Assembly: GCA_038065255.1 (NCBI GenBank)
Contig: JBBTRI010000006.1
Span: 9,240 to 73,239, forward strand
Origin: Patescibacteria group bacterium
Lineage (GTDB): Bacteria > Patescibacteriota > Patescibacteriia > JACQRZ01
Direction of reading: 5' to 3'
Length of the DNA: 64,000 nt
Shown: piece after piece, positions 12,890 to 44,739 of the stretch
Layout: each line of letters begins with the position of its first letter
Position numbering within the stretch: the first letter of the stretch is position 1
The notes under the pieces: generated by a model
The model's database searches: none
What the model saw: the letters and a program-made list of their open reading frames with translations, nothing else
What the model was told of the DNA's origin: nothing
Program-made: the position numbers and the translations under genes

Positions 12890-12917
12890 TTGACAAAAAC
12901 GCAAAAACGTGTATACT
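12890..12917 (+). promoter_or_regulatory. Sigma70-like promoter for the DEAD-box helicase gene
   Basis: TTGACA - 16 nt - TATACT. Confidence 0.5.
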
Positions 12918-12993
12918 GTATATATTACTAACAAACATTGGTACTTGATGCCAATAGTGCTCGAATTTTTCGTCAGATATCAGATGTATATAT

Positions 12994-14412: not shown

Positions 14413-14460
14413 TAAGAAAAAGTTTGGTATACTATTCAAGTAGTATTTCATATAGATATT

Positions 14461-15597: not shown

Positions 15598-15606
15598 ACT
15601 TCTTTC

Positions 15607-16188: not shown

Positions 16189-16207
16189 GTGTGCTAAAAT
16201 AATCAGT

Positions 16208-17515
16208 ATGAAATTACGATACAAAAAAACAGTGCGGCTTTCAGAACAAGAATATAAGATGGAAGCAAAGAAGCTTATAGCATACCAATCGCATCTGCGG
16301 CGCGTTGTAAGCGCGCATAATTATGCATATCCTGAAAGCTCTCTTGTTGTTCCAAGTGATGCACCGATGCAAAAAGAGATTTTTCAATGTGTGCAGCGTA
16401 CAGTGTCGTCCAGGCTTCGCTATATATTTTTGGTTGGCATTGGAGGGTCGGATTTGGGAGCAAAGGCCGTATACGATGCACTGCGAGGATACCGAGACGT
16501 ACTTGGAAAGGGATCTTCGCCTCAACTATTTTTTATTGATACGCTCAACATTCCGTTGATCTATGATATTCGCAAGCTTATAGCGTCGATCGCAGATCCC
16601 GCAGAATACCTTATTGTTATTATTTCAAAGTCCGGGACAACAACGGAAACAATTGCGGGCACAGAAGTCTTACTCGAAGCACTGCCTCGCCATGTAAAGA
16701 GTGCCGTCGACCGATGTGTTGCGATTACTGATGAAGATTCAAGGCTATGGAAGTATGCACAGAAAAACGGATGGTACGTTCTTGCAATTCCGCCAAGTGT
16801 AGGTGGTCGGTATTCGGTATTTTCTCCGGTAGGCCTCTTTCCACTTGCGGCAGCAGGATTCGATATTCGTGCGCTATGCAAGGGGGCTCTTAGCACGCGT
16901 TCTTGCTGTGTGAGTAGGGCATTGCCACTCAATCCGTCACTCCAATCAGCAATCGGCATTTTTTTACATATGAAGCGAGGATATGTAGTACATGATACGT
17001 TTTTGTTTTCGCCACAGCTCGAATCGCTTGGAAAATGGTATCGTCAATTGTTGGGGGAGAGTATCGGCAAGGAATATGACAGGGAGGGAAAACAAGTGGG
17101 GGTAGGTATTGTCCCAACCGTATCAATAGGATCGACGGATTTACATTCCGTTGGCCAGCTGTATCTTGGAGGACCCAAAAATATTCTCACAACATTTGTC
17201 CGGGTTGCGCATGCATCGCTTATTCGTGTGCCAAGAAAAGGGATGCTGCATGGCATTGTACCCGGTATTGAATCGCGCCCTCTTTCCCAAATCATGGACG
17301 CCATCCTAGATGGCACAAAAGCAGCATATGCAAAAAGATCCCTGCCGTTTTTTGAAGTGACGCTTGATAGCGTATCAGAAACAGAGTTAGGTGTTTTTTT
17401 CCAATGGAAAATGATTGAAGTCATGTATCTTGCACAATTGCTTGGTATCAATGCATTTGATCAACCAAATGTAGAAAGTTATAAAGCAGAAGCGCGAAAG
17501 CGGCTTACCCGATAG
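16208..17515 (+). CDS. pgi: Glucose-6-phosphate isomerase
   Basis: VGIGGSDLGAKAVYDAL and ISKSGTTTET sugar-isomerase motifs. Confidence 0.8.
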   Translation: MKLRYKKTVRLSEQEYKMEAKKLIAYQSHLRRVVSAHNYAYPESSLVVPSDAPMQKEIFQCVQRTVSSRLRYIFLVGIGGSDLGAKAVYDALRGYRDVLGKGSSPQLFFIDTLNIPLIYDIRKLIASIADPAEYLIVIISKSGTTTETIAGTEVLLEALPRHVKSAVDRCVAITDEDSRLWKYAQKNGWYVLAIPPSVGGRYSVFSPVGLFPLAAAGFDIRALCKGALSTRSCCVSRALPLNPSLQSAIGIFLHMKRGYVVHDTFLFSPQLESLGKWYRQLLGESIGKEYDREGKQVGVGIVPTVSIGSTDLHSVGQLYLGGPKNILTTFVRVAHASLIRVPRKGMLHGIVPGIESRPLSQIMDAILDGTKAAYAKRSLPFFEVTLDSVSETELGVFFQWKMIEVMYLAQLLGINAFDQPNVESYKAEARKRLTR

Positions 17516-17521
17516 GAAGAG

Positions 17522-20098
17522 ATGGTATACAATAAGAGTATGAATACCCTATCAAACAATACAAAGGTGTTTGATGCTTTTTCTTGTTCGCGCACCACTG
17601 TTCATACTCTGATGCGGAATATGAGCTCATCAGTGCATGGACTTTCTGTACTTAAGGCAGAAAAGCTGTTGCATATATACGGACACAATGAAATAGCACA
17701 AGGGGCACATAGGACGTGGTATGGGCATTTGGGTACTATTATTCGTGATCCGCTCAATGCGCTCCTTGGAGCATTGAGTGCCATATCCTACGGTACCGGC
17801 AGCAACGAGAGTGCTGTCATTATTGGCGTAATGGTGATACTGAGTATTAGTATGCGTTTTGTTCAAGAACATAGAGCTGACCGTGCGGAAGAGAAGCTCA
17901 AGCGCATGGTGAGCGCTCATACTCGTGTACTGCGAAATGGAAAAGAAAAAACTATCCATCTTAAAAATGTTGTTCCGGGAGATATTATTCTTTTGTCGGC
18001 GGGGGATCTTATTCCCGCTGATGTGCGTGTTATTGCTGCCAACGATCTAGCGGTTGATCAGTCCATTCTCACGGGCGAGTCATTGCCTGTTGAGAAAAAC
18101 CAAGAAGATATACATACTAATAGCTCCCAAGCAATTGAAGCGGCGAACCTCTGTTTTATGGGTAGTTATGTCCAGAATGGTTCCGGACGCGCCGTTGTTT
18201 ATGCTACCGGCATGCATACCTATTTCGGTTCTTTGGCGAAGAAAGTCCTTGAGCAACCGAGCGCAAACGATTTTGAACTATGGGTAAAGCATTTTACCAA
18301 GCTCATGGTGCGTATCATGCTTGTTGTTGCTCCGCTTGTATTTGTGATCAATGGTTTTGGGAAGGGGGATTGGTTTGAAGCATCTCTTTTTGCTTTGGCA
18401 GTTGCAGTAGGACTGACGCCGGAAATGCTGCCAATGATCATGACGATCAATCTTGGCAAGGGAGCGATCGATATGTCGCACAAAAAAGTCATTGTCAAAC
18501 AACTTGATGCCATTCAATCATTCGGATCCATGAATATATTATGTACCGACAAAACGGGAACGCTGACGCAAAACAAAATCGTTTTGGAAAAACATTGCGA
18601 TGTGGATGGCAAGGAGTCTGAAGATGTGTTGTTTTTTGCGTATGTAAATAGCTTTTTTCAAACTGGCTTAAAAAATCTGCTAGATAAAGCAATCTTGAGC
18701 CATGAACATATTTCCTTGAAGGGATATAAAAAAATAGATGAAATCCCTTTTGATTTTGTACGGCGCATGATGTCGGTGATTGTTCAAAAGGGGAAGAAGC
18801 GCATTCTAATTTCTAAAGGTGCACCGGAAGAAGTATTTCAACGCTGTACTCACTATGAACTCAATGGAGCGTTGTATCCATTGAATCATACTCTTACACC
18901 ACGACTCAAAAAAGAGTTTGATGTTCTTGGTAATGACGGATTTCGGATTATCGCATTGGGGTACAAAGAAGTACCCATAGCAAAAAAAGAGTTTACGCGT
19001 GATGATGAAAAGAATCTTACACTCTTGGGTTACCTTGCTTTTTTTGATCCTCCGAAAACAAGCGCAAAAGAAACAATTTCTGATCTTGCTCAACTTGGCA
19101 TTGAAGTCAAAGTACTCACGGGAGATAATGCGCTTGTTACTCAGAAAATCTGCCGTGAAGTTGGATTGGCTGTGCGCGGCATACTCTGTGGATCCGATAT
19201 AGAAGCACTAAGTGATGGCGAACTCGAAAAAAAGTGTGAACAGGTGAATATATTTGCGCGTATTTCCCCGCTCGATAAAGAACGTATTATCCGAGTGCTG
19301 CGGCAAGCTGGTAATGTGGTCAATTATCTCGGCGATGGCATTAATGATGCTCCGGCGCTTCGTGCCGCAGATGTTGGTATTTCAGTCGATTCCGCCGCTG
19401 ATATCGCAAAAGAATCCGCAGATATCATTCTGTTGGAAAAAAATCTTACTGTTCTTAAAGATGGCGTCATTGAGGGGCGCAAGATTTTTGCCAATATTAT
19501 CAAGTACATTAAAATGTCAGCAAGTTCAAATTTCGGTAATATTGTAAGTATCGTCGGCGGCAGTTTGTTTTTGCCATTCCTTCCCATGCTGCCTGTGCAA
19601 ATACTTCTCAATAATCTTCTCTATGATATTTCCCAAACTACACTGCCAACCGATACAGTTGACCCCGATATACTGGCGAGTCCGCAAAAGTGGGATGTTC
19701 GAGCAATTAAACGATTTATATTTTGCATAGGTCCCATCAGTTCATTGTTTGACTATCTTACGTTTTGCCTCATGTTATTTGTCTTTCAGGCATGGACAAA
19801 TCCAGCCCTTTTTCACACAGGATGGTTTGTGGAATCGCTTCTTTCACAGACGCTTATTATCCACGTTATTCGCACCAAAAAAATTCCATTTATTCAAAGC
19901 AATGCAAGCCTTCCCGTTATACTTACAACGATTGCCGTCGTCATAATTGGCATAGGACTGCCGTTTTCTCCGTATGCGTCGGCGCTTGGTTTTACGCCAC
20001 TGCCGGGGGCATATTGGATGTATATTGGCGCGATGCTTGTTGTGTATGGCATTATTACTCAAGGGGTTAAGGTATGGTTTTACCGCCGATATGCTTAA
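17522..20098 (+). CDS. P-type ATPase, MgtA-like (type IIIB Mg2+ transporter family)
   Basis: DKTGTLTQNK phosphorylation site, GDGINDAPALR, TGES, 10 TM segments. Confidence 0.85.
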   Translation: MVYNKSMNTLSNNTKVFDAFSCSRTTVHTLMRNMSSSVHGLSVLKAEKLLHIYGHNEIAQGAHRTWYGHLGTIIRDPLNALLGALSAISYGTGSNESAVIIGVMVILSISMRFVQEHRADRAEEKLKRMVSAHTRVLRNGKEKTIHLKNVVPGDIILLSAGDLIPADVRVIAANDLAVDQSILTGESLPVEKNQEDIHTNSSQAIEAANLCFMGSYVQNGSGRAVVYATGMHTYFGSLAKKVLEQPSANDFELWVKHFTKLMVRIMLVVAPLVFVINGFGKGDWFEASLFALAVAVGLTPEMLPMIMTINLGKGAIDMSHKKVIVKQLDAIQSFGSMNILCTDKTGTLTQNKIVLEKHCDVDGKESEDVLFFAYVNSFFQTGLKNLLDKAILSHEHISLKGYKKIDEIPFDFVRRMMSVIVQKGKKRILISKGAPEEVFQRCTHYELNGALYPLNHTLTPRLKKEFDVLGNDGFRIIALGYKEVPIAKKEFTRDDEKNLTLLGYLAFFDPPKTSAKETISDLAQLGIEVKVLTGDNALVTQKICREVGLAVRGILCGSDIEALSDGELEKKCEQVNIFARISPLDKERIIRVLRQAGNVVNYLGDGINDAPALRAADVGISVDSAADIAKESADIILLEKNLTVLKDGVIEGRKIFANIIKYIKMSASSNFGNIVSIVGGSLFLPFLPMLPVQILLNNLLYDISQTTLPTDTVDPDILASPQKWDVRAIKRFIFCIGPISSLFDYLTFCLMLFVFQAWTNPALFHTGWFVESLLSQTLIIHVIRTKKIPFIQSNASLPVILTTIAVVIIGIGLPFSPYASALGFTPLPGAYWMYIGAMLVVYGIITQGVKVWFYRRYA

Positions 20099-21431
20099 CG
20101 ACCGGAGAATAAGCCACCTTTTTTATAAAAGCGTAATAGGCACACTTATTATTGCTGCATTTCCGCTCTATGCTCAAGAAGCCCCACGAAGTTCCGATGT
20201 TGAAGAACTACAAACAGCATTACATACTATCGAGCGGCAGATTGTCGCGTATGAGAAAAATCTTTCGATCACCAAGAGGCAGCGTGTGGCTATTGGAAGC
20301 TTGTTGGAAACGCTTAAGGCGCAACGCATTAGCTTGCAGGAACAGATACGCCTCAGCGAACGTTCACGCGATGCCCTTCAAGACCGCATAGATGCGGTGA
20401 TTACTGACATCGATGCGCAGGAGCAAAGGGTGGAAAAAGCGCGAAAAGAACTTTCAGAACTTCTGCATATGCTTCGGCAGAACGCGAGTCGCTCATCGTT
20501 TGAGTCATTTGTTGTTCATGCGTCCCTTTCGGCCTATCTTGATGAGCAAGAGCAAACACTTCTTCTTTTGCGCATTCTTCATCTTCGGTATCTTTCGTTT
20601 AAAACCATACTTTTTGAATTGAACCAGAAAAAAAATGAACTGGATTCATATGTTAGAGAACTTGAGCATACGTTAAAAAAGAAAAGCATTCAGCAAGGAC
20701 AAGTTGACCAAAATTCTCGATTGCAAACGGTGCTATTGTCAAAGACAAAAGAAAAAGAAAAAACCACAGCACAACAATTGAGCGAGTCAAAGAAAAAAGC
20801 GCGAGCAATACGTGGCAGGATCTATGAACTGTTCAATGTCGGCAAACAGATTAATTTCGGTGCTGCGTATGAGATGGCACAGTGGGTCGGCAGTCAATAT
20901 CACATCCGACCCGCCTATCTTCTTGCTGTTCTGACACAGGAATCAAACTTGGGTAAAAATGTCGGTACCTGTAATCGCGCAACTGATCCGCCGGAAAAAC
21001 ATTGGAAGGTTATTATGAAGCCAACACGGGACCATAAACCTTTTTTGCAGATTACCAAAGAGCTTGGCCTTGATCCGGATACAACCCCCGTATCGTGTCC
21101 CATGATCCGGAACGGAAAACAGATTGGGTGGGGCGGCGCCATGGGTCCCGCACAATTTATTCCGTCAACATGGATGGGATATCGAGATAAGGTACGAACC
21201 GTCACAGGAGGCGCCGCTAATCCATGGAATATTCGTGATGCATTTATTGCTGCAGCAATTAAGCTAAGCAGTGATGGTGCACGCAATTCCGAGCAGAGTG
21301 AATTCAATGCAGCATTGCGTTATTTTTCCGGATCGGTCAATTTGACATATCGGTTTTATGGCGATAATGTACTTGCAATCGCAGAGCGGTATGAACAAGA
21401 CATTAAGCAGCTGGAAGCGTTACCTAATTAG
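20091..21431 (+). CDS. Secreted coiled-coil protein with C-terminal lytic transglycosylase (SLT_2/MltB-like) domain
   Basis: TQESNLGKNVGTCNRA ... GPAQFIPSTW; the start was moved to the ATG after the ATPase stop, because the track ORF overlaps the ATPase gene. Confidence 0.6.
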   Translation: MLNDRRISHLFYKSVIGTLIIAAFPLYAQEAPRSSDVEELQTALHTIERQIVAYEKNLSITKRQRVAIGSLLETLKAQRISLQEQIRLSERSRDALQDRIDAVITDIDAQEQRVEKARKELSELLHMLRQNASRSSFESFVVHASLSAYLDEQEQTLLLLRILHLRYLSFKTILFELNQKKNELDSYVRELEHTLKKKSIQQGQVDQNSRLQTVLLSKTKEKEKTTAQQLSESKKKARAIRGRIYELFNVGKQINFGAAYEMAQWVGSQYHIRPAYLLAVLTQESNLGKNVGTCNRATDPPEKHWKVIMKPTRDHKPFLQITKELGLDPDTTPVSCPMIRNGKQIGWGGAMGPAQFIPSTWMGYRDKVRTVTGGAANPWNIRDAFIAAAIKLSSDGARNSEQSEFNAALRYFSGSVNLTYRFYGDNVLAIAERYEQDIKQLEALPN

Positions 21432-30514: not shown

Positions 30515-31540
30515 CTACAGAGCAATCTCCATGCCTTCGTATGCCGCTTTGGTTGGGATATCGCAGAGCGTTTCTACGAACGTTGCGAGTTCCGTGATCT
30601 TGTAGTCTGATGCTGCAGGGTCATGGTGTGTTGTCATGATGCGGAGCGGTGAGCCTGCGCGGGCAACTTTGGCGATGTACTCGGGATAGGAGTGTCCCCA
30701 GTTGAGCTTCTGGACGCTGCCGACACCAAGGTAGTCGTCGAGTGAGTACTGGCAATCGGTCGTCCAGAGATCTGCGCCAGCAACCAGGTCCTTGAGCGGG
30801 ACGGGAATGGCATCATTGCCGTAGGGCTCATGGTCGGTGGTGAAGCAGAATACCTTGTCATTGAAGGTGATGCGATAGCCGAATGTTTCCTGGGGGTGAT
30901 GGAGCTTGCGTGCCTTGATGATGATCGGACCCTCGTCAGACTGGATGGTGATTGTCCAGCCATCGTGAATGGTATGGAATTCCATTTCCATTCCAGTATG
31001 CTTGAGTTCACCGAACATGACTGGGAATACAGGGTGATCCATTTGTCCCTTCAGGACCGTTTCGAGATTCGCATCCCATTCCTTGCCGCCATAGAAGATG
31101 AACTTGTTCTTGAACACTCCCTTTGGCATGTAGAGCGGGTTGAAGAATGGCAGGCCCTGGATGTGGTCCCAGTGAACGTGGCTTTGCAGAATTATTCCCG
31201 AGAGCCCTTTGGCTTCGAGTGTTTCGGGCATGAGTGCGGAACCCAGTTCACGCAAGCCCGTGCCCATGTCGATGATGATGAGAGTCTTTCCGCAGCGCAC
31301 TTCCACACAAGTGGTGTTGCCACCATAGGTAGAGCGCACTTCGAAGGGGAGGTTCGCATCAACCCAATTCTCAAGAGTACTTTCCGATTGTTCCCCAAAC
31401 GACGGATCGTTTTGGGCAATCTTCAGAGCCTTGAGAATTTTCTCGCGAACCTTGGCGCCGGTGAGTGGCGAGGGGATGGACCCCCGCACTCCCCAGTACC
31501 GGATAATCATAGGCGCTTTCATGGTGTACTTCCTTGTCAA
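30515..31540 (-). CDS. MBL-fold metallo-hydrolase
   Basis: HVHWDHIQG metal-binding motif; beta-lactamase fold pattern. Confidence 0.65.
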   Translation of the reverse strand: MTRKYTMKAPMIIRYWGVRGSIPSPLTGAKVREKILKALKIAQNDPSFGEQSESTLENWVDANLPFEVRSTYGGNTTCVEVRCGKTLIIIDMGTGLRELGSALMPETLEAKGLSGIILQSHVHWDHIQGLPFFNPLYMPKGVFKNKFIFYGGKEWDANLETVLKGQMDHPVFPVMFGELKHTGMEMEFHTIHDGWTITIQSDEGPIIIKARKLHHPQETFGYRITFNDKVFCFTTDHEPYGNDAIPVPLKDLVAGADLWTTDCQYSLDDYLGVGSVQKLNWGHSYPEYIAKVARAGSPLRIMTTHHDPAASDYKITELATFVETLCDIPTKAAYEGMEIAL

Positions 31541-35174: not shown

Positions 35175-35702
35175 ATGGAAAATGATAACCAAGTAGTCAT
35201 TTATACAGAAGACAATGGCTCAACTCGCCTTGAAGTTACTTTTCGAGACGAAACAGTTTGGCTTAATCTTAATCAAATTGCCAAACTTTTTGGACGCGAT
35301 AAATCCGTCATTTCGCGACATCTATCTTCTATTTTTAAAGAGAAGGAGCTAGATCGAAGGTCAACTGTTGCAAAAAATGCAACAGTTCAAATTGAACAAG
35401 GAAGAGAAGTTGTTCGTCAAATAGAGTATTTTAACCTTGATGCAATTATATCAGTTGGATATAGGGTTAATTCAAAACAAGCAACGCAATTTCGAATGTG
35501 GGCTACAGACACCTTAAAAGAACATATCTTGAAGGGGTATACAGTTAATGAAAACCGCCTTAGGGACAACCAAGCATTAAAACTGAAGGAACTTGAAAAA
35601 ACAGTATCATTACTTCAGGGAGTTATCCGCTCAAAAATACTTAATGATATCGTTGGTCACAAACTTGCTTTCGAAAGGATGATATATGGTATCGAGGCAT
35701 GA
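35175..35702 (+). CDS. RhuM-family N-terminal domain protein (paralogue of 8557..9030)
   Basis: VVIYTEDNGSTRLEV...TVWLNLNQIAKLF...YFNLDAIISVGYRVNSKQATQFRMWATDTL. Confidence 0.6.
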   Translation: MENDNQVVIYTEDNGSTRLEVTFRDETVWLNLNQIAKLFGRDKSVISRHLSSIFKEKELDRRSTVAKNATVQIEQGREVVRQIEYFNLDAIISVGYRVNSKQATQFRMWATDTLKEHILKGYTVNENRLRDNQALKLKELEKTVSLLQGVIRSKILNDIVGHKLAFERMIYGIEA

Positions 35703-36426
35703 AATTATACAGAAATTGACCGATGGCTTAAAAAAGAATCCGCACGTTTTCGCATTGTGGCTTGAAGGCGCTGATTCAAATAATACTGTTGATAAATTCT
35801 CCGACATCGATGTTTGGCTTGATGTAAAAGATGGTAAAGAACGAGAAGTGTTTCGGTCTATCAAAAAGATTTTGCAAAAGCTTGGTCCGACAACCCTCTT
35901 GGGCTTTCTTGATAATCCCAACCCCGATATTTTCACACGGGCATATCATCTTGATAATACTCCCCCAACACTTCTTATAGATATTTGCGTTCAGCGCCAT
36001 AGCCGTAATTTTGTTTTTATTAAAGAACATACGCATGAGCGTCCCAAAATACTTTTTGATAAGTGCACTGTGATACAGTATAAGAAGCTTAACGCAGCTG
36101 AAGAAAAGTGCATACAACAAAAGAGAATAGAGTTTCTTAAAAGTGCACTACGGCAAAAAGGGAGGATTATTGCTAAGATAAAACGCAAGGACTTCCTTGA
36201 AGCCCTTGCATACTATCACAAATGGGCACTTGCACCCTTAGTGGAACTTTTACGCATCCGATATGCGCCATTAAAGCGAGAATATCATCTTAAGCATGCT
36301 TCACGCGACCTCCCAAAGCGCGTTGTCGCACAACTTGAAGATCTCTACAAAGTAGCATCAGTAAAAGATATTCAATCAAAGCTTAGTAAAGCCTGTAAGC
36401 TTTTCTATCAAACCCTAAAAAAATAA
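35686..36426 (+). CDS. Pol-beta-superfamily nucleotidyltransferase (KNTase/ANT-like) with helical C-terminal domain
   Basis: FALWLEGADSNNTVDKFSDIDVWLDV (G-x-S...D-x-D motif); overlaps the RhuM-like gene by 17 nt. Confidence 0.5.
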   Translation: MVSRHEIIQKLTDGLKKNPHVFALWLEGADSNNTVDKFSDIDVWLDVKDGKEREVFRSIKKILQKLGPTTLLGFLDNPNPDIFTRAYHLDNTPPTLLIDICVQRHSRNFVFIKEHTHERPKILFDKCTVIQYKKLNAAEEKCIQQKRIEFLKSALRQKGRIIAKIKRKDFLEALAYYHKWALAPLVELLRIRYAPLKREYHLKHASRDLPKRVVAQLEDLYKVASVKDIQSKLSKACKLFYQTLKK

Positions 36427-36450: not shown

Positions 36451-37443
36451 ATGATCATAAAACTTGAAGATTTGAAAGCGGTTGCCAAAAAAGCGATCTT
36501 GAACTATGGATATTCGGAAAGCGAAGCAATTGTTATGCTTGACGTGATGCTTTACGCTCAAATGCGTGGCAACAATCAGGGAGTAGTGAAGCTTATTGGC
36601 AAGGGGATTCCGAAATCTGCAGCCACTCGTCCCATTGTAGTAGAAAAAGAAACAGCTTTGTCAGCTTTTTTTGATGGTGGCCAAAACCATGCCATGGTCG
36701 CTGTGAAATATGTAGTTGACGTGGCGATTTCAAAAGCAAAGAAATGCGGTATCGCAGTGGTAGGTATTCATCAGCTCAATACCTCATCGGGTGCACTTGG
36801 GTACTATGCGCGTTCAATCGCAGACTCTGGATTGGTTGGAATGGTGATGTGCGGTTCTATGGAAACAGTCGCAGCAGCAGGTTCTTCCCAGGCAATTTTT
36901 GGAACTAACCCATTTGCGATTGCAGTGCCTACAGCTACACAGCCCATGGTGTTTGATATGACGACTTCCGCAATGGCATTTTTTGGTGTTGTGCAAGCCG
37001 ATACTGCCGGAGTGCCTCTTCCTGAAGGAATCGCATATGACAAAGAAGGAAGTCCAACTACAAAAGCATCAGATGTGCTTGCCGGAGGAGCGCTTAAGTC
37101 TTTTGACGGAAGTCATAAGGGTTCAGGCCTTTCGATGATGATCCAGGCGCTTACCGGACCGCTTCTCCATTCGTATTTTACTGGTATTGGTGATGTTGGA
37201 AGTAATTGGGCAGGACATTTGATCGTAGCATTTGATCCAGAGCTTTTAGGTGGTCTTGCGTCGCTTAAAGAAGGCGTAAGTCAGATGATAGAAAAAGTAA
37301 AAGCAACAAAAAAATTGCCAAATGTTGATGAAATTTTTGTACCAGGTGAGAAGGGAGATAGGCTTACTCAGGCCATACTCCAATCAGGTGAGATAGAAAT
37401 TGAAGATAATCTTTATAATGAACTTAGAAAAATAGCTGCATAA
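36451..37443 (+). CDS. Ldh_2 family (malate/L-lactate/sulfolactate dehydrogenase-like) oxidoreductase
   Basis: Overall similarity pattern to the Ldh_2 family (YlbC/ComC/AllD type). Confidence 0.6.
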   Translation: MIIKLEDLKAVAKKAILNYGYSESEAIVMLDVMLYAQMRGNNQGVVKLIGKGIPKSAATRPIVVEKETALSAFFDGGQNHAMVAVKYVVDVAISKAKKCGIAVVGIHQLNTSSGALGYYARSIADSGLVGMVMCGSMETVAAAGSSQAIFGTNPFAIAVPTATQPMVFDMTTSAMAFFGVVQADTAGVPLPEGIAYDKEGSPTTKASDVLAGGALKSFDGSHKGSGLSMMIQALTGPLLHSYFTGIGDVGSNWAGHLIVAFDPELLGGLASLKEGVSQMIEKVKATKKLPNVDEIFVPGEKGDRLTQAILQSGEIEIEDNLYNELRKIAA

Positions 37444-37450: not shown

Positions 37451-37490
37451 GAGCCGCACATGCTTACCATGGCGGCGGTGTTTTGGTCTA
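37451..37490. terminator. Bidirectional hairpin between convergent genes
   Basis: agccgc...gcggcgg stem followed by gttttgg. Confidence 0.35.
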
Positions 37491-38735
37491 GTACACGCAT
37501 TTTTGTCTGAACGTGGTTGTGTAGCCGGACTGTTGCTTGAACCATTCTACACGCTCGGGATCGCCGATGGCTTTCTCGATGTTGTCGGAGAGCTTTACAA
37601 GGGAGATTCCATCAGCTTCGGTAGCCTTGATCACCAATGAGAGAGCTTTGAATCCCAGGTCATTGGTGAGGTTGGTTCCCCAGCCGAAGACGAACATGAT
37701 GCGCGTTGCGAATTGTTTGGCAAGGGCATTCATCGCTTTCACATCAAGACCGTCAGAGAATACGATGAGCTTTTCTCGTGCATCGATCCCGTAGAATGCA
37801 TACAGTGCGACGACCTGTTCTCCATATTCTGCCGGATCACCGGAGTCTTGGCGGGTGCCCTTCCATTGCACAGCACGTTCTTTGGTGAATACTTCACGGA
37901 AGAAGAATGGCGAACCATAGGTATCGGTGAGCGCCGTAGAGAGTGCTGATCCGTAGAGATCGTACCAGTCGTCAAGCAATTCTTGCTGAGTTGCGACAAG
38001 ATCATTGCCAAGCGATGCATACACCATCGAAAGTTCATGTGCATTGGTCCCAATGGCTTTGAGTCCATATTTCTTTGCAAGATACACATTCGAAGTTCCG
38101 ATGAATTGCGAAGTTGGTAGAGAGGCTGCAAGCGTACGGACAACATACTCCTGCCATTCTTTGCTGAATCTGCGCCGCGTTCCAAAATCCGAGAAGACAA
38201 TGAATTCATTTCCTTTAATAATCGCAATCTTATCGTCAAGGCGCTTTTTCCCTTCTTCGATACGAGTGCATTTCTCATCTTCAGTGAGTGAATCACACAG
38301 TGATTCACTATACAGCTCAGAAAGAATCGAAAGAGCGATTGTTTCCCAATACGTTACTTCTGCCCATGGGCCGCTGAACGTGAGCGTAAGCGTTCCGTTT
38401 TTTTCGACATCAAGCCGGTAACTCCCCAGTTTGAGTGTCGAAAGGAAGGCAAGATACTTCTTCCTGAAGAGCTTTACGCCATTGAGAGAAAGAGTTCTGA
38501 GGTATTCGATTTCATCATTAGACAGCGAGAGAGTGCGGACGTGGTCAAGCTCTTGCCGCAAACGTTGGATGTCAATGACGTTGCCCAGCTTCACCGACCG
38601 AGTTCTATTGGTCAGCGAAAATGTGACGCGTCGTTTGCCGTGCTTTAAGAAGATAAGCTGCCCCATCGTGAACTTATAGAAGTCAATGTCAAGAAGCGAT
38701 TGTATGATTGGTTCAGAACGAATTGTAAGGTGCAT
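37488..38735 (-). CDS. pncB: Nicotinate phosphoribosyltransferase
   Basis: N-terminal LLDIDFYKFTMGQ (NAPRTase D-x-Y-K-x-TM motif). The start was moved to the MHLTIRS ATG, which is preceded by GAGAGGAGAAAAAATA, because the track ORF has an 84-aa N-terminal overextension. Confidence 0.8.
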   Translation of the reverse strand: MHLTIRSEPIIQSLLDIDFYKFTMGQLIFLKHGKRRVTFSLTNRTRSVKLGNVIDIQRLRQELDHVRTLSLSNDEIEYLRTLSLNGVKLFRKKYLAFLSTLKLGSYRLDVEKNGTLTLTFSGPWAEVTYWETIALSILSELYSESLCDSLTEDEKCTRIEEGKKRLDDKIAIIKGNEFIVFSDFGTRRRFSKEWQEYVVRTLAASLPTSQFIGTSNVYLAKKYGLKAIGTNAHELSMVYASLGNDLVATQQELLDDWYDLYGSALSTALTDTYGSPFFFREVFTKERAVQWKGTRQDSGDPAEYGEQVVALYAFYGIDAREKLIVFSDGLDVKAMNALAKQFATRIMFVFGWGTNLTNDLGFKALSLVIKATEADGISLVKLSDNIEKAIGDPERVEWFKQQSGYTTTFRQKCVY

Positions 38736-38787
38736 TATTTTTTCTCCTCTCTCAACGTTCTTTTTGAAAAAAATATTGAGAGAGAAG

Positions 38788-38829
38788 GGGAGTAGAGGGA
38801 TTTGAAAGAGAATACATATCTCTACTCCC
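38788..38829 (-). terminator. Hairpin plus T-tract between the vWA gene and pncB (possible internal terminator/attenuator)
   Basis: gggagtagag ... ctctactccc perfect 10-bp inverted repeat followed on the minus strand by a T-rich run. Confidence 0.35.
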
Positions 38830-38836
38830 ATTGGGG

Positions 38837-39622
38837 TTAGGTGCCGAATCCTCCCAGAGCGCTGAAACCACCAGTCTTTATGTTGGAGAAGGCGGCAGCA
38901 TTCTGGCTGGCTCTGACGGCAGACTGAGAAACGAACTGGAAGCATTTCCGGATTTCGGAAGGGCTGTTGCCGGGCGTGAGGATGCACGCATCGGGAATGC
39001 CCATCTCCGCGAAAATGCGCCGGAAGTTGGTCTGTCCGTCATCGATGCCCATGGCGAGGATGAGGTGTTCCTCCTGGCGGAGCATGCTGTCTACGACATG
39101 TTTGATGGTTGCAGGCGTGTGCTGGGACGATCCGACATCTGCCCCATCCGTGATGATCACCGTGATCGTACGCGTCGGGACGTTGTTGTCGGCGAACTCC
39201 TTCTTTTTCGCCAGCGACCGGCCGAGGACGATCGCTGCTTTGTCGTAGAGAGGAGTGTTGCCGTAGGGGCGGAAGGTCGTGCCGGTAAGCGGCGCGATGT
39301 TGTCGATGAGCACGTATGGCGAGTAAGTGCCTTTGTTGAGCGCTTCGACGTGCATCAAGATGCCGCTTGCCTGCTTGGAATCCTTGAGAGCCTTCAGAGT
39401 GAGATTGGTTCCGTCGATGAGTACACGGGTGTTTCCCGCATGTTCGATCGAAGAGGAGTCATCGAGGAGGAGTGTGACGATGGTCGTTTCACTCGCCTCG
39501 ACGTCATCGACGCTGATGCCCATGGCGTCCTTGATCTGGGCACCGTAATCGATGATCTGGAGCGTCCGAAGGGCGTCTGCTGTGAGTTCGCCTTCATCCG
39601 CAAGTTCCTTGAATACGTTCAT
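38837..39622 (-). CDS. vWA-domain protein (TerY-like)
   Basis: MIDAS motif LLLDDSSSI ... T ... ITDGAD; Gly-rich C-terminus. The start was moved to MNVFKELADEG, which has AAGGGAG upstream and clears the upstream gene. Confidence 0.7.
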   Translation of the reverse strand: MNVFKELADEGELTADALRTLQIIDYGAQIKDAMGISVDDVEASETTIVTLLLDDSSSIEHAGNTRVLIDGTNLTLKALKDSKQASGILMHVEALNKGTYSPYVLIDNIAPLTGTTFRPYGNTPLYDKAAIVLGRSLAKKKEFADNNVPTRTITVIITDGADVGSSQHTPATIKHVVDSMLRQEEHLILAMGIDDGQTNFRRIFAEMGIPDACILTPGNSPSEIRKCFQFVSQSAVRASQNAAAFSNIKTGGFSALGGFGT

Positions 39623-39695
39623 GGTTGAGAGATCTCCCTTCTGTATGGTGTACGGGGAGGGACACCATACGATCGGCATCCCTCCCGCGGCGGTA

Positions 39696-40745
39696 TTACT
39701 TCCAGGTATCCATGGGATCGGTCGAGAGAACCACGTGCATGCCCGCTTTGGCATAGCGGTCTAGCGAACTTTCCGCCTGGACCGTATAGTCCACGACTCC
39801 CGGCACGACGACGGCGGAGGTGCAATCCCGAAGGATGTACACCTTCTCGGCGAGCGAACGGTCGCGCGCCATGATGTCGTCGAGCAGATCGTCGATGGAG
39901 CTCTTCACGCAGTGGCTTGCAGCCTGTCCTGCGATGATGAGCATGTCAGCGTTCGTGAGCTTGAGGAGGAGCTTGGTGTTGAGGCCTTCCGTGAGCGGCG
40001 CGCCGTCGTAGCGAGTCGTCACTTCAGGTTTGAACACGGAGTAGTTCTCGGTGAGCGGGTGCCCGCCCTTGATTTCCAGAAGCGATTGCCGGCCGCGCGC
40101 GAACGCGTGGAAAAGCCTCGCTTCATTGATCACGCCGGTGAGGGCATGCCCTTCCGTGCCGAGCAGGCAGTGGTAGGGCCAGAGGTAAAGAGTGTACTTG
40201 CCGGACTTTTCGAGTTCGGCGCAGTAGTGCTCCACCTGGTGATTCAGGAACGCCATCACTGCGCTTGGGTTCGCATCTCCGGCGATCCAGTTGGCAACAG
40301 CCGGATTGGGACGATAGATGCCCTGCCGGATCTCTTGCACCGTGATCATGGTGTGGGGGGACGGGTGCGAGCCGTCTTCCTTCAGCCAGAACGACGGGAA
40401 GAAGATCTGGAAGGGGTAGTGCGTATCGAGGGTGAGGGTGATGTCGTCGATGACGCCGAGATTGCGATAGATGAATTCCGCGAAGCGGACGTTGTCATCG
40501 ATCGCACCCCGGCCGCTGCGGGCCCCCACGTAGAGGGAGCCTTCCGGGAAGCAGAAGTCCTTCTGGAGGTCGATGCCGAGGACGTGAATCCGCGACTTTT
40601 TCACGGGCGCGATGGTGTGAGCAGCGCGCCAGCGCTCGGCCTCTTCGAAGACTTTCTGGGACGAGGGGTTGTATCCCCAATTCTCGGCATTCTTCGCCTC
40701 GAAGAGTGGTGGGATGGGGAGTGCGGGATTGGTCGATGTCTTCAT
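39696..40745 (-). CDS. pncA: Nicotinamidase-like cysteine hydrolase (isochorismatase superfamily), enlarged PncA homologue
   Basis: VLGIDLQKDFCFPEGSLYVG matches the PncA D-x-Q-x-D-F-C..GSL signature; DTHYP/SHPSPH metal-site His; catalytic Cys in AGQAASHCVKSS. Confidence 0.65.
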   Translation of the reverse strand: MKTSTNPALPIPPLFEAKNAENWGYNPSSQKVFEEAERWRAAHTIAPVKKSRIHVLGIDLQKDFCFPEGSLYVGARSGRGAIDDNVRFAEFIYRNLGVIDDITLTLDTHYPFQIFFPSFWLKEDGSHPSPHTMITVQEIRQGIYRPNPAVANWIAGDANPSAVMAFLNHQVEHYCAELEKSGKYTLYLWPYHCLLGTEGHALTGVINEARLFHAFARGRQSLLEIKGGHPLTENYSVFKPEVTTRYDGAPLTEGLNTKLLLKLTNADMLIIAGQAASHCVKSSIDDLLDDIMARDRSLAEKVYILRDCTSAVVVPGVVDYTVQAESSLDRYAKAGMHVVLSTDPMDTWK

Positions 40746-40765
40746 CGGGGGCGTCCTTTCGTGTT

Positions 40766-42637
40766 CTAGAGAGTTAGCGTGGTGATTTCATGTGCTGACA
40801 CGACTGCAATGCCGCCCTGGCAGGGAAGCAACGTGCAATCGGCATCAACAAAGTTTTCCGTGTCCGGGAATTCACGTGTTACGACCAGATCGGAACCTGA
40901 TTGCTCCACGCGCACGATACCCCTATCCGTTGGTACGAATAGGAATGGCCCAATCGCGCAACTTCCATTGAACGATGAGAGCCAGCTCGTGTTTGCGGCA
41001 TTGCCTTCCGCCTGCGCCAGGATTACTCCTCGCGCATTAATGAGATAGGTGCGCTGCATGAGCGTGCCGTACTCATCGGTACAGATCGTGAACCAACAGA
41101 GATCCTTAGAGAATCTGCAATTGGCATTGATGATCCGCCCTCTGATCTGAGGCAGACGAACGGAGTCGTTGAGGACTGAGCCTATTGGTTTTGCAATGAA
41201 GGCCTGCGCTAGTGTTCCTGCTCGGTAGAATCCGAATCCGAAAGCGGGTCCTGTCCAAAAGCGTGTGTAGCCGGCGAGTGCAGTGCCCAAGAGCCGTGGT
41301 TCATAGGTGTCATCTTTCAGTACGCGCCCTTGCTCAACCCAGTACAGACTCTCTCCGTCGGTTGCGAATTGCGTTTGTCCTTCGACTAGATCTGCCTGAA
41401 CGACTGAGCGTTGCCCTGACGGGCCATATCGCTCGATAATTCCTTTCGAAGCGATAATGGTATCTGTGCCCACTATGCCGTATTGCATGTCTGGAGTTGT
41501 TTTGCCGTTCACGATGAGTGTTCCTTGTTCACGCTTGAAAGCCCCCTGTTCGTAGGTGATCCATTGGAGCGTTCCGTTGCGTGCAGTTGCATGGATGATG
41601 ATCCTGGTCGTTTTGAAGATGCGTGTTGCTGTCACCGTTCCTCGAATGGTTATGTGTTCTTTAACAATCTGGCGTTGTGGTGTGATGCATGAAGGGCAGG
41701 TGCTTCGGGCGTGGAACAAGCTGCACGTCGGGCACTGCTGAAAGCGAAGAGTTGTGAGAAGCTGCTGAGGAAAGACCCCTCGTTTATCCCGCGTGAAGAT
41801 CTGAGTGAATTCGTGAATTAAGTCATCCGGCAGCATGGAGTAGTGGAGTGCTGGCTTGGGGTAGGCAATATCGGGATGAAAGACAGTCATACGTTCCGCA
41901 AGTCTCTCTCGGTGTCCCATTCTGTGCTTTGATTGTGATGGTTTGTGGATACCTCCATAGGGCCCGACATAGAGCAGAAGTTGCATGAGCATGCATGCAT
42001 ATGCATACCAGTCAGATGTTTCTCTATGGGGAGAGGACAGCATGATCGAATCTTGTATCGTACAGAGCATCGGATCGACGAATCGTTCCGTGAACATTCG
42101 GCAGAGATAGTGTCCAAACTGGAAACTATCCGTATCGATGATCATAGTTCCTGTTCCCTGTACGAGTATGTTGAGATCATTGAAGTCCCCAATTACAACG
42201 CCGATCGCATGGATTTTTTTGAGTGTTGCATGGAGATTTCGCATGATTGCCGGAATCACATCAACGGGGGTACTGCGGCGGAATGCTTTGTCGCTGTAGC
42301 GGATAAGCTCTGTCGCTCCTACGATTTTTTTCATGCTGTATCCCAGTATGCGATTGCTGCGCATATCAGTTGCGCTAGCCATTGGCGTAATGACTTCCGG
42401 TGGCAGGGATGTTGGAAATGCCATGAGTTTTGTCTGGTATTCTTCTAGACGCTCCCGTACAGCTCGCTGGATATCTGGTTGATTGGTAAAGTCGGGGTGG
42501 TCTGGCTGTTTGTAGAGTTTGAATACCAAATCATTTCCGATATCGTAGATGACTGCTTCACCTCCCTGGCCGATAATCCGCTTTGCTTCAAGCTTGAGTG
42601 GCTTGCCATTGAGATTGACGGTAGTCATTGCTCGCAT
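40766..42637 (-). CDS. Ser/Thr protein kinase with C-terminal zinc ribbon and large beta-rich domain
   Basis: Gly loop IGQGGEAVIY, catalytic VIGDFNDLNILV, DTDSF; CPTCSLFHARSTCPSC ribbon; about 300-aa C-terminal domain. Confidence 0.7.
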   Translation of the reverse strand: MRAMTTVNLNGKPLKLEAKRIIGQGGEAVIYDIGNDLVFKLYKQPDHPDFTNQPDIQRAVRERLEEYQTKLMAFPTSLPPEVITPMASATDMRSNRILGYSMKKIVGATELIRYSDKAFRRSTPVDVIPAIMRNLHATLKKIHAIGVVIGDFNDLNILVQGTGTMIIDTDSFQFGHYLCRMFTERFVDPMLCTIQDSIMLSSPHRETSDWYAYACMLMQLLLYVGPYGGIHKPSQSKHRMGHRERLAERMTVFHPDIAYPKPALHYSMLPDDLIHEFTQIFTRDKRGVFPQQLLTTLRFQQCPTCSLFHARSTCPSCITPQRQIVKEHITIRGTVTATRIFKTTRIIIHATARNGTLQWITYEQGAFKREQGTLIVNGKTTPDMQYGIVGTDTIIASKGIIERYGPSGQRSVVQADLVEGQTQFATDGESLYWVEQGRVLKDDTYEPRLLGTALAGYTRFWTGPAFGFGFYRAGTLAQAFIAKPIGSVLNDSVRLPQIRGRIINANCRFSKDLCWFTICTDEYGTLMQRTYLINARGVILAQAEGNAANTSWLSSFNGSCAIGPFLFVPTDRGIVRVEQSGSDLVVTREFPDTENFVDADCTLLPCQGGIAVVSAHEITTLTL

Positions 42638-43536
42638 ACCTCGTTTCTTTTTCCCAGAATCACCGTCGTATCATCCGGCAGCAACCCTGGATTTCTTGCA
42701 ATTGCTGTTCCGAGATTATTCATGCGGACAACATCTGTTGCTATCGCAGAAAGTCGGCGTCGAAGCGCATCACGATTCATCACGTAGCGTTCCTCAGTCC
42801 AGAATTGACTGACTGGTCCGATAGGTGAATCGGTTCCCGGAAGCATGTCGGATTCATGGCGCTGCAGGTGGGCTATTCCATCTGTTGCAAGAAGGAAATG
42901 ATGAAGATCATTGGTTGCTATCACTCGGTTGACAGTGAGAATGAGCGATTGTGGTGGCAGAGATGTTTTCACGAGACGATAAGCTAGGTAGGGCGGCGAA
43001 TTTGCTTCCGCTATTTCGAGCGGTAGGTGTTCGCCATTTATTACCATTGCGCCATCGCCAAGCGAAAAGAACGCAGCATGGGTTGCTGTCATGAGAACAC
43101 CGACAATCGTGAAGAGGAGATGGTCCTGCACAAAGATTGCACGATCCTCCACTTCCATACTGGTGATAAGTGCAGAGAGTTTTACACAGACACGCCCCGG
43201 TATTCCCTCGCGCCATTCCCAGTGATTTTGGTGATCAAAGAGGAGATGTTGGCTTTCCGGAGCGTAGTTGTTGAGCGCGCGCAGAACTTCACTGCATACA
43301 AGGCGCGCACCAAGCACTGCGCCAATTTCATTGTGGTTAGTAGTATTTTCATGTTGACTACCACTGCCGCACCCATCTGTTACGACCGCTATAGTTGCGT
43401 TGTGTTGATGTATGACACAGAAACCATCATGATTGTTTTTTCCCGATCGTATGTGATCACGTCCCGTTACTGATGCATGGGCAAATGTGAAAGGTAGGTG
43501 TGATTCAAGAAAGGTTTTTGTCGTAGACATTTTCAA
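42625..43536 (-). CDS. PP2C-family Ser/Thr phosphatase (PP2C_2-like)
   Basis: VTDGCGSG, ATDGIAHL and DDTTVI metal-binding Asp motifs; overlaps the kinase gene by 13 nt. Confidence 0.7.
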   Translation of the reverse strand: MKMSTTKTFLESHLPFTFAHASVTGRDHIRSGKNNHDGFCVIHQHNATIAVVTDGCGSGSQHENTTNHNEIGAVLGARLVCSEVLRALNNYAPESQHLLFDHQNHWEWREGIPGRVCVKLSALITSMEVEDRAIFVQDHLLFTIVGVLMTATHAAFFSLGDGAMVINGEHLPLEIAEANSPPYLAYRLVKTSLPPQSLILTVNRVIATNDLHHFLLATDGIAHLQRHESDMLPGTDSPIGPVSQFWTEERYVMNRDALRRRLSAIATDVVRMNNLGTAIARNPGLLPDDTTVILGKRNEVCEQ

Positions 43537-43622
43537 TGTACAGTTGCCGCATCGTAGAGATGCAGGTCTCAGAGCTTAGTAAGGTTTTCTGGTGGTTAAG
43601 TACTGAGATCTTCATTCTACAA

Positions 43623-43860
43623 GTGTACTAAGTACACTAACTAAGAGGCAAAAAATAATATGGAGACGTAAGGGAGGGGAGTGGTTTGTGATGCCTGCAA
43701 TTGAGATACTAATATTGTATTATATACACTAACTAAGAGGCGAAAAAATAAGTGGAAGAAGAAGCTATAGAGTGAAAAAAGAGATGGACAGACAGGAAAA
43801 ATGATAGAGTGGCAGTCATATAGGTGTATATAATACACTAACTAGGGATAAAAAAATAAA
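43623..43860. repeat. Three direct repeats (about 27 bp, spaced 92 and 109 bp) each preceded by a GTGTA(C/T)...(A/G)TACAC palindrome; candidate operator array
   Basis: tacactaactaagaggcaaaaaataa at 43633, 43725 and, as a variant, 43834; palindromes gtgtactaagtacac (43623-43637) and gtgtatataatacac (43823-43837). Confidence 0.6.
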
Positions 43861-43875
43861 TAGGGATAGGCACTA

Positions 43876-44592
43876 TCAGAGAATATCTACAAATTCGGGA
43901 ATGCGTTTTTTGAAGGTATAGAGTTCTGCGGGGCGGTTTGCCGTGCCTCGGCGTTTCTTTCCTGTTGCGCGGATAAGACCTAGTGAGAGTATTTTTTTGC
44001 GAAAGTTTCGCTTGTCAAGCTTGCGGCCGAGAATCACTTCATATACCGATTGCAGTTCGCTGAGTGTGAATTCTTTAGATAGAAGGCTATAACTGATGGT
44101 GCTATAGGCAAGTTTGCTTTTGAGGCGATCGATTGCTCGTGAGATGATTTCACTATGGTCATAGGCTAGCGAAGGAAGTTTTTTGATGGGAAACCAATCA
44201 ATTCCTGCATAATCAGCTGTCGTTTTTAATGACACATTGGTGCTTGGTATGAGTGCAAAGTAGGCGACGGATACTACGCGTCCGCGAGGGTCACGGTCTA
44301 CACGGCCAAATGTATAGAGCTGCTCGAGGTAGACGTCTTTGACGTTTGTTTTTGCTCGGAGATGGCGGAGGGCTGCCTCGTCGGCTGATTCGTCCGGCGT
44401 AATAAGTCCGCCGGGTATGGCCCACATGTTGACATAGGGTTGCCGTGTCATTTTGATAAGCAGTACTTTGAGTTGGCCATTCTGGATGGTAAAGATGACG
44501 ATATCAGTTGCAAGTATTGCGTGGACAAATTGTTTGAGTGGTGCGATGGGCATATACTTAGTGTCTAACATACACATACTAGCATATCTCAA
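43876..44592 (-). CDS. nrtR: NrtR-family transcriptional regulator (Nudix-like effector domain + C-terminal wHTH)
   Basis: Nudix-like WAIPGGLITPDESADEAALRHL, plus C-terminal ELQSVYEVILGRKLDKRNFRKKILSLGLI characteristic of the NrtR DNA-binding domain; the start may be a downstream Met. Confidence 0.7.
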   Translation of the reverse strand: MRYASMCMLDTKYMPIAPLKQFVHAILATDIVIFTIQNGQLKVLLIKMTRQPYVNMWAIPGGLITPDESADEAALRHLRAKTNVKDVYLEQLYTFGRVDRDPRGRVVSVAYFALIPSTNVSLKTTADYAGIDWFPIKKLPSLAYDHSEIISRAIDRLKSKLAYSTISYSLLSKEFTLSELQSVYEVILGRKLDKRNFRKKILSLGLIRATGKKRRGTANRPAELYTFKKRIPEFVDIL

Positions 44593-44739
44593 AACCCTGT
44601 CAAGAGGGAAGTCTGAGAATTATTGAGAAAAAGGAAATAGTACTGTATTTATGCGATAAAATACCACCTCTTCTTTTGTAGGAGTCTTTTAATCAATCCC
44701 AATTTTTGGTAGAGTAGGAAGAGTTATACACACTCACCT

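Follow-up and report, generated by a model that had tools for sequence, protein, structure and literature searches.

Why should a nicotinamidase, an enzyme of NAD+ salvage, be encoded among the genes of a protein kinase, a protein phosphatase and a vWA protein? The question is raised by a locus in a 64,000-nucleotide (nt) stretch of the genome of a Patescibacteria group bacterium (NCBI GenBank assembly GCA_038065255.1, contig JBBTRI010000006.1, positions 9,240 to 73,239 of the forward strand), which we refer to at its full length as the window and number from its first letter. Five co-directional minus-strand genes at 37488..43530 encode, in the order of reading, a PP2C phosphatase, a kinase, the nicotinamidase, a vWA protein and PncB. 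Triads of kinase, phosphatase and vWA protein, known as TerY-P or YegI-PphC-YegL, are common and one is present in Escherichia coli K-12; to our knowledge, no substrate or output is known for them. The depletion and reconstitution of NAD+, on the other side, is now regarded as a central battlefield of bacteria and phages. Here, we show that the phosphatase, kinase, nicotinamidase and vWA genes form one conserved cassette, in which the nicotinamidase is a constant fourth member beside the triad, and we consider what such an arrangement may be for.

A conserved four-gene cassette

The genes of the locus are as follows.

42625..43530, minus strand: PP2C-family Ser/Thr phosphatase, 301 amino acids (aa), with an alternative TTG start at 43536 (PF13672)
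40766..42628, minus strand: YegI-like Hanks-type Ser/Thr kinase with a C4 zinc ribbon and a WD40-like beta-propeller, 620 aa
39696..40745, minus strand: predicted long-form nicotinamidase (PncA-like cysteine hydrolase), 349 aa (hhalign, motifs)
38837..39622, minus strand: predicted vWA-fold protein with a metal ion-dependent adhesion site (MIDAS) motif, 261 aa (model, Foldseek, motif)
37488..38735, minus strand: pncB, nicotinate phosphoribosyltransferase, 415 aa (NF003704, TIGR01514, NAPRTase, NAPRTase_N)

To see how far this arrangement extends, a profile of the vWA protein was run against one genome per species (185,579 species genomes), which gave 405 confirmed loci; the neighbourhood counts rest on the best 80 of these 405, of which 65 had sufficient flanking DNA. 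Of the 65 assessable loci, 63 have the complete set of four genes, in the order PP2C-kinase-nicotinamidase-vWA in 61 and as nicotinamidase-vWA-PP2C-kinase in two, and three look-ups begun from the nicotinamidase led to the cassette as well. This co-localization is far above chance, and the cassette is made of two sub-modules that are kept together, PP2C-kinase and nicotinamidase-vWA. A preliminary description of the window had taken the nicotinamidase to be interleaved with the triad. Since its gene lies directly upstream of the vWA gene in 74 of 75 loci, it is better regarded as integral, an invariably linked member and not an insertion between triad genes. Triad and NAD genes as independent neighbours, brought together by chance, have a practically negligible probability and are refuted by the neighbourhood survey, the order being kept in 61 of the 65 assessable loci, in several phyla and also in phages. 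The case is different for pncB, which the same description had counted as a constituent of the module. Looked for in other genomes, the pncA-like gene recurs (63/65 loci), but pncB is merely an occasional neighbour, found within the locus in just 10 of 63, mainly in small genomes. In 33 of 56 loci, a gene for the regulator NrtR is present at most 3 kb upstream. When the neighbours were all clustered de novo, in clusters contaminated by high-GC shadow open reading frames (ORFs), no universal partner emerged other than the four genes and nrtR.

The cassette is carried by Myxococcota (Archangium, Corallococcus, Myxococcus, Kofleriaceae), Cyanobacteria (Nodosilinea PCC 7104, Leptolyngbyaceae, Pseudanabaena), many Patescibacteria, Planctomycetota, Entotheonella, Actinomycetota and others. 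It appears to be horizontally mobile; among 72,556 plasmid records, no copy of the vWA protein was found. Three further observations were made in the course of the survey. The only clear case of a solo vWA gene among the 65 assessable loci is L011 (Spirochaetes bacterium GWB1_27_13), where a homologue of 47% identity is unaccompanied by the other three genes within 10 kb. An Archangium locus (L047, 3538-7322; similarly L016, L018 and L040) has an opposite-strand gene for a STAND/NACHT-like NTPase and a gene for a TPR-repeat protein between the kinase and nicotinamidase genes. A Planctomycetota locus adjoins helicase, GIY-YIG and Metallophos genes.

Within the window, gene calls, domain matches and structural models bear out the five co-directional genes and their kinds. 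The junctions depart from the gaps or overlaps of 13-70 bp first given: the stop codon of the PP2C gene and the start codon of the kinase gene overlap as ATGA, and gaps of 20, 73 and 101 nt follow down to pncB. The hidden Markov model searches by which the proteins were to be verified gave a divided answer. The phosphatase matches PF13672 (PP2C_2, E 6e-16), the Pfam family of E. coli PphC, and PncB lies above curated cut-offs (NF003704, 418 bits against 379; TIGR01514, 328 bits against 270); the kinase (20.9 bits in Pfam) and the isochorismatase-fold protein stay below the cut-offs, and the vWA protein has no match in a Pfam scan. No RNA family was matched in an Rfam scan of 37-45 kb.

The kinase and the phosphatase

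The kinase is composed of a kinase domain (residues 1-295), a C4 zinc ribbon (about 299-314) and a WD40-like beta-propeller (about 330-620). A public protein exists that is 100% identical to this 620-aa reading, and the structural model has a mean predicted local distance difference test score (pLDDT) of 88. The glycine loop, the beta-3 lysine, the GDxNDxN catalytic loop, the IDxDS metal loop and the four cysteines of the zinc ribbon are invariant, and the mean pairwise identity is 56% in the kinase domain and 48% in the propeller. Alignment of its profile with E. coli YegI by hhalign (98.6%, E 1e-15, 296 columns) runs through the metal loop and the zinc ribbon and takes in the GKGGE, GDxNxN and IDxDSFQ motifs. 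The protein is a clear homologue of YegI and a Ser/Thr kinase with a zinc ribbon, as was proposed, and the catalytic residues of both kinase and PP2C are intact. A tblastn search of plasmid records matched E. coli yegI.

The triad of E. coli K-12 is encoded in the order yegL (vWA), pphC (PP2C_2), yegI. The cassette shares with YegL-PphC (YegK)-YegI the vWA protein, the PP2C_2 phosphatase, the Hanks-type kinase with a zinc ribbon after the kinase domain and a non-canonical DSD-type Mg loop (IDxDS, invariant in the cassette kinases); the coupling of the PP2C and kinase genes through an ATGA overlap is also found in E. coli B. YegI is an active, autophosphorylating Ser/Thr kinase for which the DSD loop is essential and whose gene has the ATGA overlap with pphC; its substrates and function are not known (bioRxiv 10.1101/819920). 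In contrast to the cassette, the E. coli locus is without nicotinamidase and NrtR, its gene order is vWA-PP2C-kinase, and YegI ends in a two-pass membrane segment, where the cassette kinase has a beta-propeller.

TerY-P triads were defined as a vWA protein, a PP2C phosphatase and a Ser/Thr kinase fused to a zinc ribbon, and proposed to act as a phosphorylation switch (PMC11090510). With a MIDAS-bearing vWA protein, a PP2C and a kinase C-terminally fused to a zinc ribbon, the cassette has this architecture, so that the earlier assignment to the TerY-P triads is upheld by domain composition as well as by the homology of the kinase to YegI. The contexts differ: TerY-P is known from tellurite resistance, DNA-processing and CoCoNuT systems, whereas the partner in the cassette is a nicotinamidase. 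A TerY-P-like variant that defends against phage has an OB fold on its kinase (PMC11090510; Gao et al., 2020) in place of the beta-propeller found here. PADLOC models of TerY-P or other defence systems matched none of the five proteins at E<=0.01 and none of the four cassette proteins at E<=10, a weak test, as E. coli YegL, PphC and YegI were missed too. A search of the TerY-P literature turned up no link to NAD genes.

The vWA protein

A profile search of the sequences of solved structures gave nothing useful for the vWA protein. Its AlphaFold model (pLDDT 91) is related by Foldseek to integrin I and vWA domains (probability 1.0, E 1e-7), and a DDSxS...T...TDGxD pattern is invariant among its relatives, which number over 1,300 at about 50% identity; in this pattern, the MIDAS residues (DDSxS, T123 and D159) are conserved without exception. 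Model and motif together make the 261-aa protein a vWA protein that bears a MIDAS site, and the identity first read from the motif DxSxS...T...D is corroborated by fold and conservation alike. The likeness to YegL is remote only (hhalign probability 26%, 50 columns), whereas YegL itself matches PF00092. The C-terminal tail, SQSAVRASQ...GGF (residues 221-255), is better conserved than the core, with mean pairwise identities of 71% and 62%, respectively. It contains two invariant SQ pairs and ends in GGF, an element that is doubled in the protein of the window (GGFSALGGFGT). Matches to vWA proteins of the Pseudomonas phage psageK4 type were discarded; these belong to an unrelated replication module and not to the cassette.

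The nicotinamidase

The profile of the third cassette protein aligns with E. coli PncA (hhalign 96%, E 2e-9) across the WPxHC, KG..YS.F and xHCVK signatures. An Asp-Lys-Cys triad (D59, K226, C279) and a metal site (D107, H109, H192) are invariant in 25 sequences; of these residues, D59, D107 and H109 are outside the stretch aligned to PncA and are assigned by motif alone. The NCBI label of an identical protein is “nicotinamidase”. Relative to E. coli PncA, the protein has about 130 additional residues and an N-terminal extension for which the E. coli enzyme offers no equivalent. The signature motifs and the invariant triad agree with the PncA-like identity proposed before and mark the protein as a probable long, divergent nicotinamidase, which would deamidate nicotinamide.

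One alternative is that the isochorismatase-fold enzyme acts on some other amide (e.g. nicotinamide mononucleotide (NMN), nicotinamide riboside or a protein-linked group), with the vWA protein as substrate carrier or chaperone. Such a role could explain the extra residues and the N-terminal extension, the sub-threshold matches to nicotinamidase models, the further domain of about 235 aa in some members and the close pairing with a vWA protein, which is unusual in a simple salvage enzyme. We nevertheless consider it very unlikely, given that the nicotinamidase-specific WPxHC, KG..YS.F and xHCV signatures and the D/H/H metal ligands are invariant, and that the recurrent metabolic neighbour is PncB, the next enzyme of the nicotinate route, with a full Preiss-Handler set at locus L099.

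The additional domain of about 235 aa is N-terminal and common to the protein encoded at L091 7894-9672 and to the 583-aa relative P0314 (24% mutual identity, E 4e-20), and it is unmatched. P0314 was considered as a possible fusion of nicotinamidase and vWA protein and rejected, its N-terminal domain not being a vWA domain.

NrtR and its candidate operators

Upstream of the operon, separated from the PP2C gene by a spacer of 345 nt, lies the gene for NrtR, together with repeats that may serve as its operators.

43876..44553, minus strand: nrtR, Nudix-related transcriptional regulator, 225 aa from the ATG at 44553 (NrtR_WHD and NUDIX)
43614-43664, 43706-43756 and 43815-43865, minus strand: three direct repeats of about 51 nt upstream of the PP2C gene
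43623-43637, 43715-43729 and 43824-43838, minus strand: GTGTA-N5-TACAC palindromes, one per repeat, candidate NrtR operators
44561..44603, minus strand: promoter-like site of nrtR, with -35 TTGACA (44603-44598) and -10 TAGTAT (44581-44576)
44561-44575, minus strand: fourth candidate operator, GTGTCTAACATACAC, between the -10 element and the start codon of nrtR

The protein matches NrtR_WHD (PF21906, E 7e-26), NUDIX (PF00293, E 3e-14) and NF050029 (E 4e-50). A mechanical ORF call begins at TTG 44592; the length of 225 aa, counted from the ATG, is in keeping with the 224-225 aa of sister loci. Its Nudix box, as read from the translation, is degenerate (RE to RH and EE to AK), and the loss of the catalytic glutamates is as expected in a sensor. 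The operator motif has four matches in the 64 kb, all near nrtR, where 0.88 are expected, and none of 100 shuffled sequences reached four. Of 61 other loci, 43 have the motif at most 400 nt upstream of their PP2C gene, frequently as a pair of sites with a distance of 22 bp. The adjacent regulator gene and its candidate operator repeats, noted from the outset, are substantiated by both the domain matches and the excess of palindromes.

The core of the palindrome equals the published GT-N7-AC consensus of NrtR sites, from which ADP-ribose frees NrtR in vitro (PMC2330246). By analogy, ADP-ribose would de-repress the operon described here. Further features shared with the NrtR regulons described by Rodionov et al. 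(2008) are the Nudix-winged helix-turn-helix (wHTH) regulator, targets among pncA/pncB, prs and nadE, and ADP-ribose as the effector (PMC2330246). The regulons as described differ in that their PncA is short and that genes for a kinase, a phosphatase or a vWA protein are missing; targets under the labels nrtX-nrtY are also listed in that paper.

NAD+ genes around the cassette

Linkage of the cassette to genes of NAD+ synthesis and ADP-ribose processing is recurrent. The sister genome (L097) has the layout of the window, with pncB in the same position. At L001, the order is NrtR-cassette-Nudix-unknown-PncB-Prs-NadE, and at L099 it is NUDT9-like Nudix-NrtR-cassette-ADP-ribosylglycohydrolase-NadD-like-PncB-Prs-like-NadE. 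The gene set of L099 spans every step from both products of NAD+ cleavage to NAD+ by the Preiss-Handler route, the steps being named from Pfam families and the pathway outline in PMC2330246. The cassette of L103 is situated between ribosomal-protein and ATP synthase operons.

Some features of these neighbourhoods deserve separate mention. L099 amounts to a 12-gene super-operon (7174-20440) with genes of ADP-ribose processing, the cassette, all Preiss-Handler steps and the Prs-like gene. At L103, nrtR and the PP2C gene are separated by an extra 482-aa gene that matches nothing in Pfam (2693-4141), and a DUF1152 gene follows the vWA gene (8912-9862). In the window, RhuM/Bro-N-like and nucleotidyltransferase-like genes (35175-36426, plus strand) lie beyond the end of pncB with one gene (Ldh_2, 36451-37443) between; they may be remnants of mobile or toxin-antitoxin elements amid housekeeping genes (Ddl, Ldh_2, GpsA, glycerol kinase).

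Composition of the nicotinamidase and vWA genes

A rise in GC content over the locus, highest in the vWA and nicotinamidase genes, was among the first features remarked upon, and it is real: in 1-kb windows, GC is 0.58-0.59 at 39-41 kb and 0.38-0.50 elsewhere. The rise is an effect of third codon positions with borders that are sharp at the genes. GC at these positions (GC3) is 0.80 in the nicotinamidase gene, 0.73 in the vWA gene, 0.54 in the kinase gene, 0.52 in pncB and 0.42 in the PP2C gene, while the remaining long ORFs of the window have 0.26-0.50, bar one outlier at 30515-31522. Half of the third positions are C in both the nicotinamidase and the vWA genes (0.50). The long antisense shadow ORFs that had been noted as typical of GC-rich DNA are an expected by-product of the high GC3. 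The outlier, a metallo-beta-lactamase-fold gene on the minus strand with a GC3 of 0.66 and C at 0.41 of third positions, is the only other strong compositional anomaly in the window.

The step is not peculiar to this genome. It is also seen at L097, L099, L001, L068, L070, L084, L028 and L091, in low-GC genomes both sister and distant, where the GC3 of the nicotinamidase and vWA genes is 0.59-0.85 (above 0.7 in all except L028) beside about 0.5 in the kinase and PP2C genes and a lower host background. The loci concerned occupy at least four branches of protein distance trees, at about 50% protein identity. In other low-GC carriers, the cassettes are fully host-like in composition.

A GC-rich stretch may simply be a recently acquired foreign island, the composition of which is silent on function. 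The GC3 of 0.73-0.80 against a background of 0.26-0.45 and the patchy phylogeny of the cassette, with GC-rich Myxococcota nearest to the nicotinamidase of the window outside its own clade, would suit this explanation. It is a possibility that we regard as doubtful, as the step is limited to the nicotinamidase and vWA genes, with kinase, PP2C and pncB raised only mildly, recurs on four or more branches with about 50% protein identity, a distance at which synonymous sites should be equilibrated, and is absent from the wholly host-like cassettes of other low-GC hosts. A single recent transfer does not explain the GC step; selection on the nicotinamidase-vWA pair, or repeated replacement of that pair, may do so.

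Phage-borne copies

Nine viral contigs of IMG/VR (41-436 kb) carry the cassette, with vWA proteins of 42-53% identity, and nrtR is found at none of the nine. At L094 and L095, a PncB-like gene is directly upstream of the PP2C gene and the neighbours are of phage type (RepO-like, DUF5131, RNA ligase, methylase, ParB); at L091, a NadD-like gene directly follows the vWA gene. At least two huge-phage genomes, both published (LR756500.1 and LR745208.1; 462 and 485 kb), have a diverged but complete cassette in the order nicotinamidase-vWA-PP2C-kinase. In LR756500.1 (L105, 70547-74613, GC 23%), the four ORFs overlap, a NadE-like gene is 3 kb off and a sigma factor gene is nearby; LR745208.1 (L106, 213265-220514) has the same four genes and one extra ORF. 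The nicotinamidase also has matches in LR756511.1 and in the 6.5-kb record MT837596.1, and the 436-kb viral contig of L091 encodes a major-vault-protein-like protein and RtcB.

Discussion

We consider it modestly probable that the locus is an ADP-ribose-responsive NAD+ recovery operon, that is, a nicotinamide-recycling cassette whose nicotinamidase is gated by a phospho-switch. NrtR, bound to the three operators upstream of the PP2C gene and to one at its own promoter, would keep the operon off until ADP-ribose, a product of NAD+ cleavage, accumulates. The nicotinamidase would convert nicotinamide, the other cleavage product, to nicotinate, which PncB would turn into nicotinate mononucleotide, an activity expected from homology and intact catalytic residues. 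The phosphorylation state of the nicotinamidase-vWA pair may be under the control of kinase and PP2C, with the SQS...SQ tail of the vWA protein as the best-conserved candidate site. The MIDAS could act as a phospho- or metal-dependent clamp that toggles the enzyme on and off, and the conserved propeller of the kinase may sense a conserved cellular ligand. In phages, a cassette without NrtR would serve to rebuild NAD+ during infection. Of the two possibilities raised at the outset, a defence module wired to NAD+ homeostasis and a phosphorylation switch on NAD salvage under NrtR, the latter fits the evidence best.

Several points weigh against this interpretation. A link of the kinase to the nicotinamidase or the vWA protein, and the choice of its substrate, are guesswork. 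The matches of the nicotinamidase to family models are sub-threshold (PF00857, 18.8 bits against 27, E 2e-3; NF008623, 27 bits against 174, E 3e-6), its alignment to E. coli PncA covers only the C-terminal two thirds of the protein, and a profile search of the sequences of solved structures matched none. Triads like TerY-P are, by report, able to act against phage on their own (PMC11090510). The cassette is rare and patchy across phyla, as are accessory or conflict modules, and pncB adjoins it in just 10 of 63 loci. Finally, phage-borne copies suit counter-defence but also prophage-encoded defence.

The main rival is a conflict module directed against phages, with the triad as the sensor of infection and the nicotinamidase as effector. 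Destruction of nicotinamide after NAD+ cleavage would starve NAD+ reconstitution by the phage or lock in the depletion, and NrtR would tie expression to the ADP-ribose freed by NADase defences. The TerY-P architecture and its reported anti-phage role agree with such a module, as does the prediction that Nudix-wHTH regulators control NAD/ADP-ribose conflict systems (PMC9503650). The same can be said of the patchy, apparently horizontal distribution, the absence of pncB from most loci, the STAND NTPase-TPR insertion in Archangium and the helicase, GIY-YIG and Metallophos genes beside the Planctomycetota locus. Nicotinamide is, moreover, used by both NARP1 and NARP2, two phage NAD+ reconstitution pathways (PMC13464706). 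We judge this module unlikely all the same. The four proteins, the putative sensor propeller included, evolve slowly (mean pairwise identity of 48-62% in the propeller, the kinase domain and the vWA core), which sets them apart from the fast-evolving sensors of conflict systems. No PADLOC model is matched and 72,556 plasmid records yield no copy; the cassette is found inside complete NAD+ synthesis operons (L001, L099) and amid housekeeping operons (L103); and huge phages carry it near NAD synthesis genes, where a defence by withdrawal of nicotinamide makes little sense. There is overlap between the recovery and conflict interpretations, since the restoration of NAD+ following an attack by NADases serves either.

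A more far-reaching proposal, which we put forward tentatively and regard as rather doubtful, makes the cassette a widespread and hitherto unrecognized module of conflict and repair centred on NAD+. Both sides would use it, bacteria under a repressor that senses ADP-ribose and huge phages constitutively, and its phospho-switch of the YegI/PphC/YegL type would time the return to NAD+ of the nicotinamide that NADases release. If so, it would provide the first physiological output for triads of the TerY-P/YegI type and a Preiss-Handler-type counterpart to the phage NARP pathways. NARP1 consists of Adps and Namat, and NARP2 of Nampt and NMNAT. NARP1 recycles ADP-ribose, NARP2 converts nicotinamide via NMN and NARP3 consists of PnuC and a NadR-like protein (PMC13464706); NARP3, considered as a candidate for the same system, was set aside as different by this composition. 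Like NARP1-3, the cassette is part of phage-borne gene sets that would rebuild NAD+, being present in huge phages and IMG/VR contigs near PncB-, NadD- and NadE-like genes. NARP1-3 use other enzymes and have neither a nicotinamidase nor a kinase/phosphatase/vWA triad. Conversely, Pfam and NCBIfam searches of the cassette proteins revealed none of the NARP-defining enzymes, only PP2C, kinase and nicotinamidase-type matches and no match for the vWA protein, and the likeness is one of purpose only.

A second comparison is with the Nudix- or WYL-regulated systems centred on an ADP-ribosylglycohydrolase (Iyer et al., 2022), which are predicted to counter viral ADP-ribosylation and resemble the cassette in an NrtR-like, ADP-ribose-sensing repressor and an occasional vWA “chaperone”. 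The ADP-ribosylglycohydrolase itself is shared with the relative at L099. The core of those systems differs from the cassette in being an ADP-ribosylglycohydrolase with phosphatases, without nicotinamidase and without a kinase-PP2C pair.

In conclusion, all parts of the locus are of known kinds, and what is new is that a triad of the YegI/TerY-P type is coupled in a fixed manner to a nicotinamidase under NrtR, and that this coupling also occurs in huge phages. Searches of the searchable literature turned up no description of this association of triad, nicotinamidase and NrtR, though earlier comparative-genomics work might mention the cassette. The triad is here tied to one well-understood reaction and to a regulator of known ligand, ADP-ribose, which gives a testable hypothesis for the target of the switch, and carriers are in culture, among them Archangium, Corallococcus and Myxococcus species and Nodosilinea nodulosa PCC 7104. 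A nicotinamidase module common to bacteria and huge phages would open a new route in the contest over NAD+ and bring to it a new layer of control after translation. Patescibacteria depend on salvage, and the cassette may be their chief entry to NAD+ synthesis.

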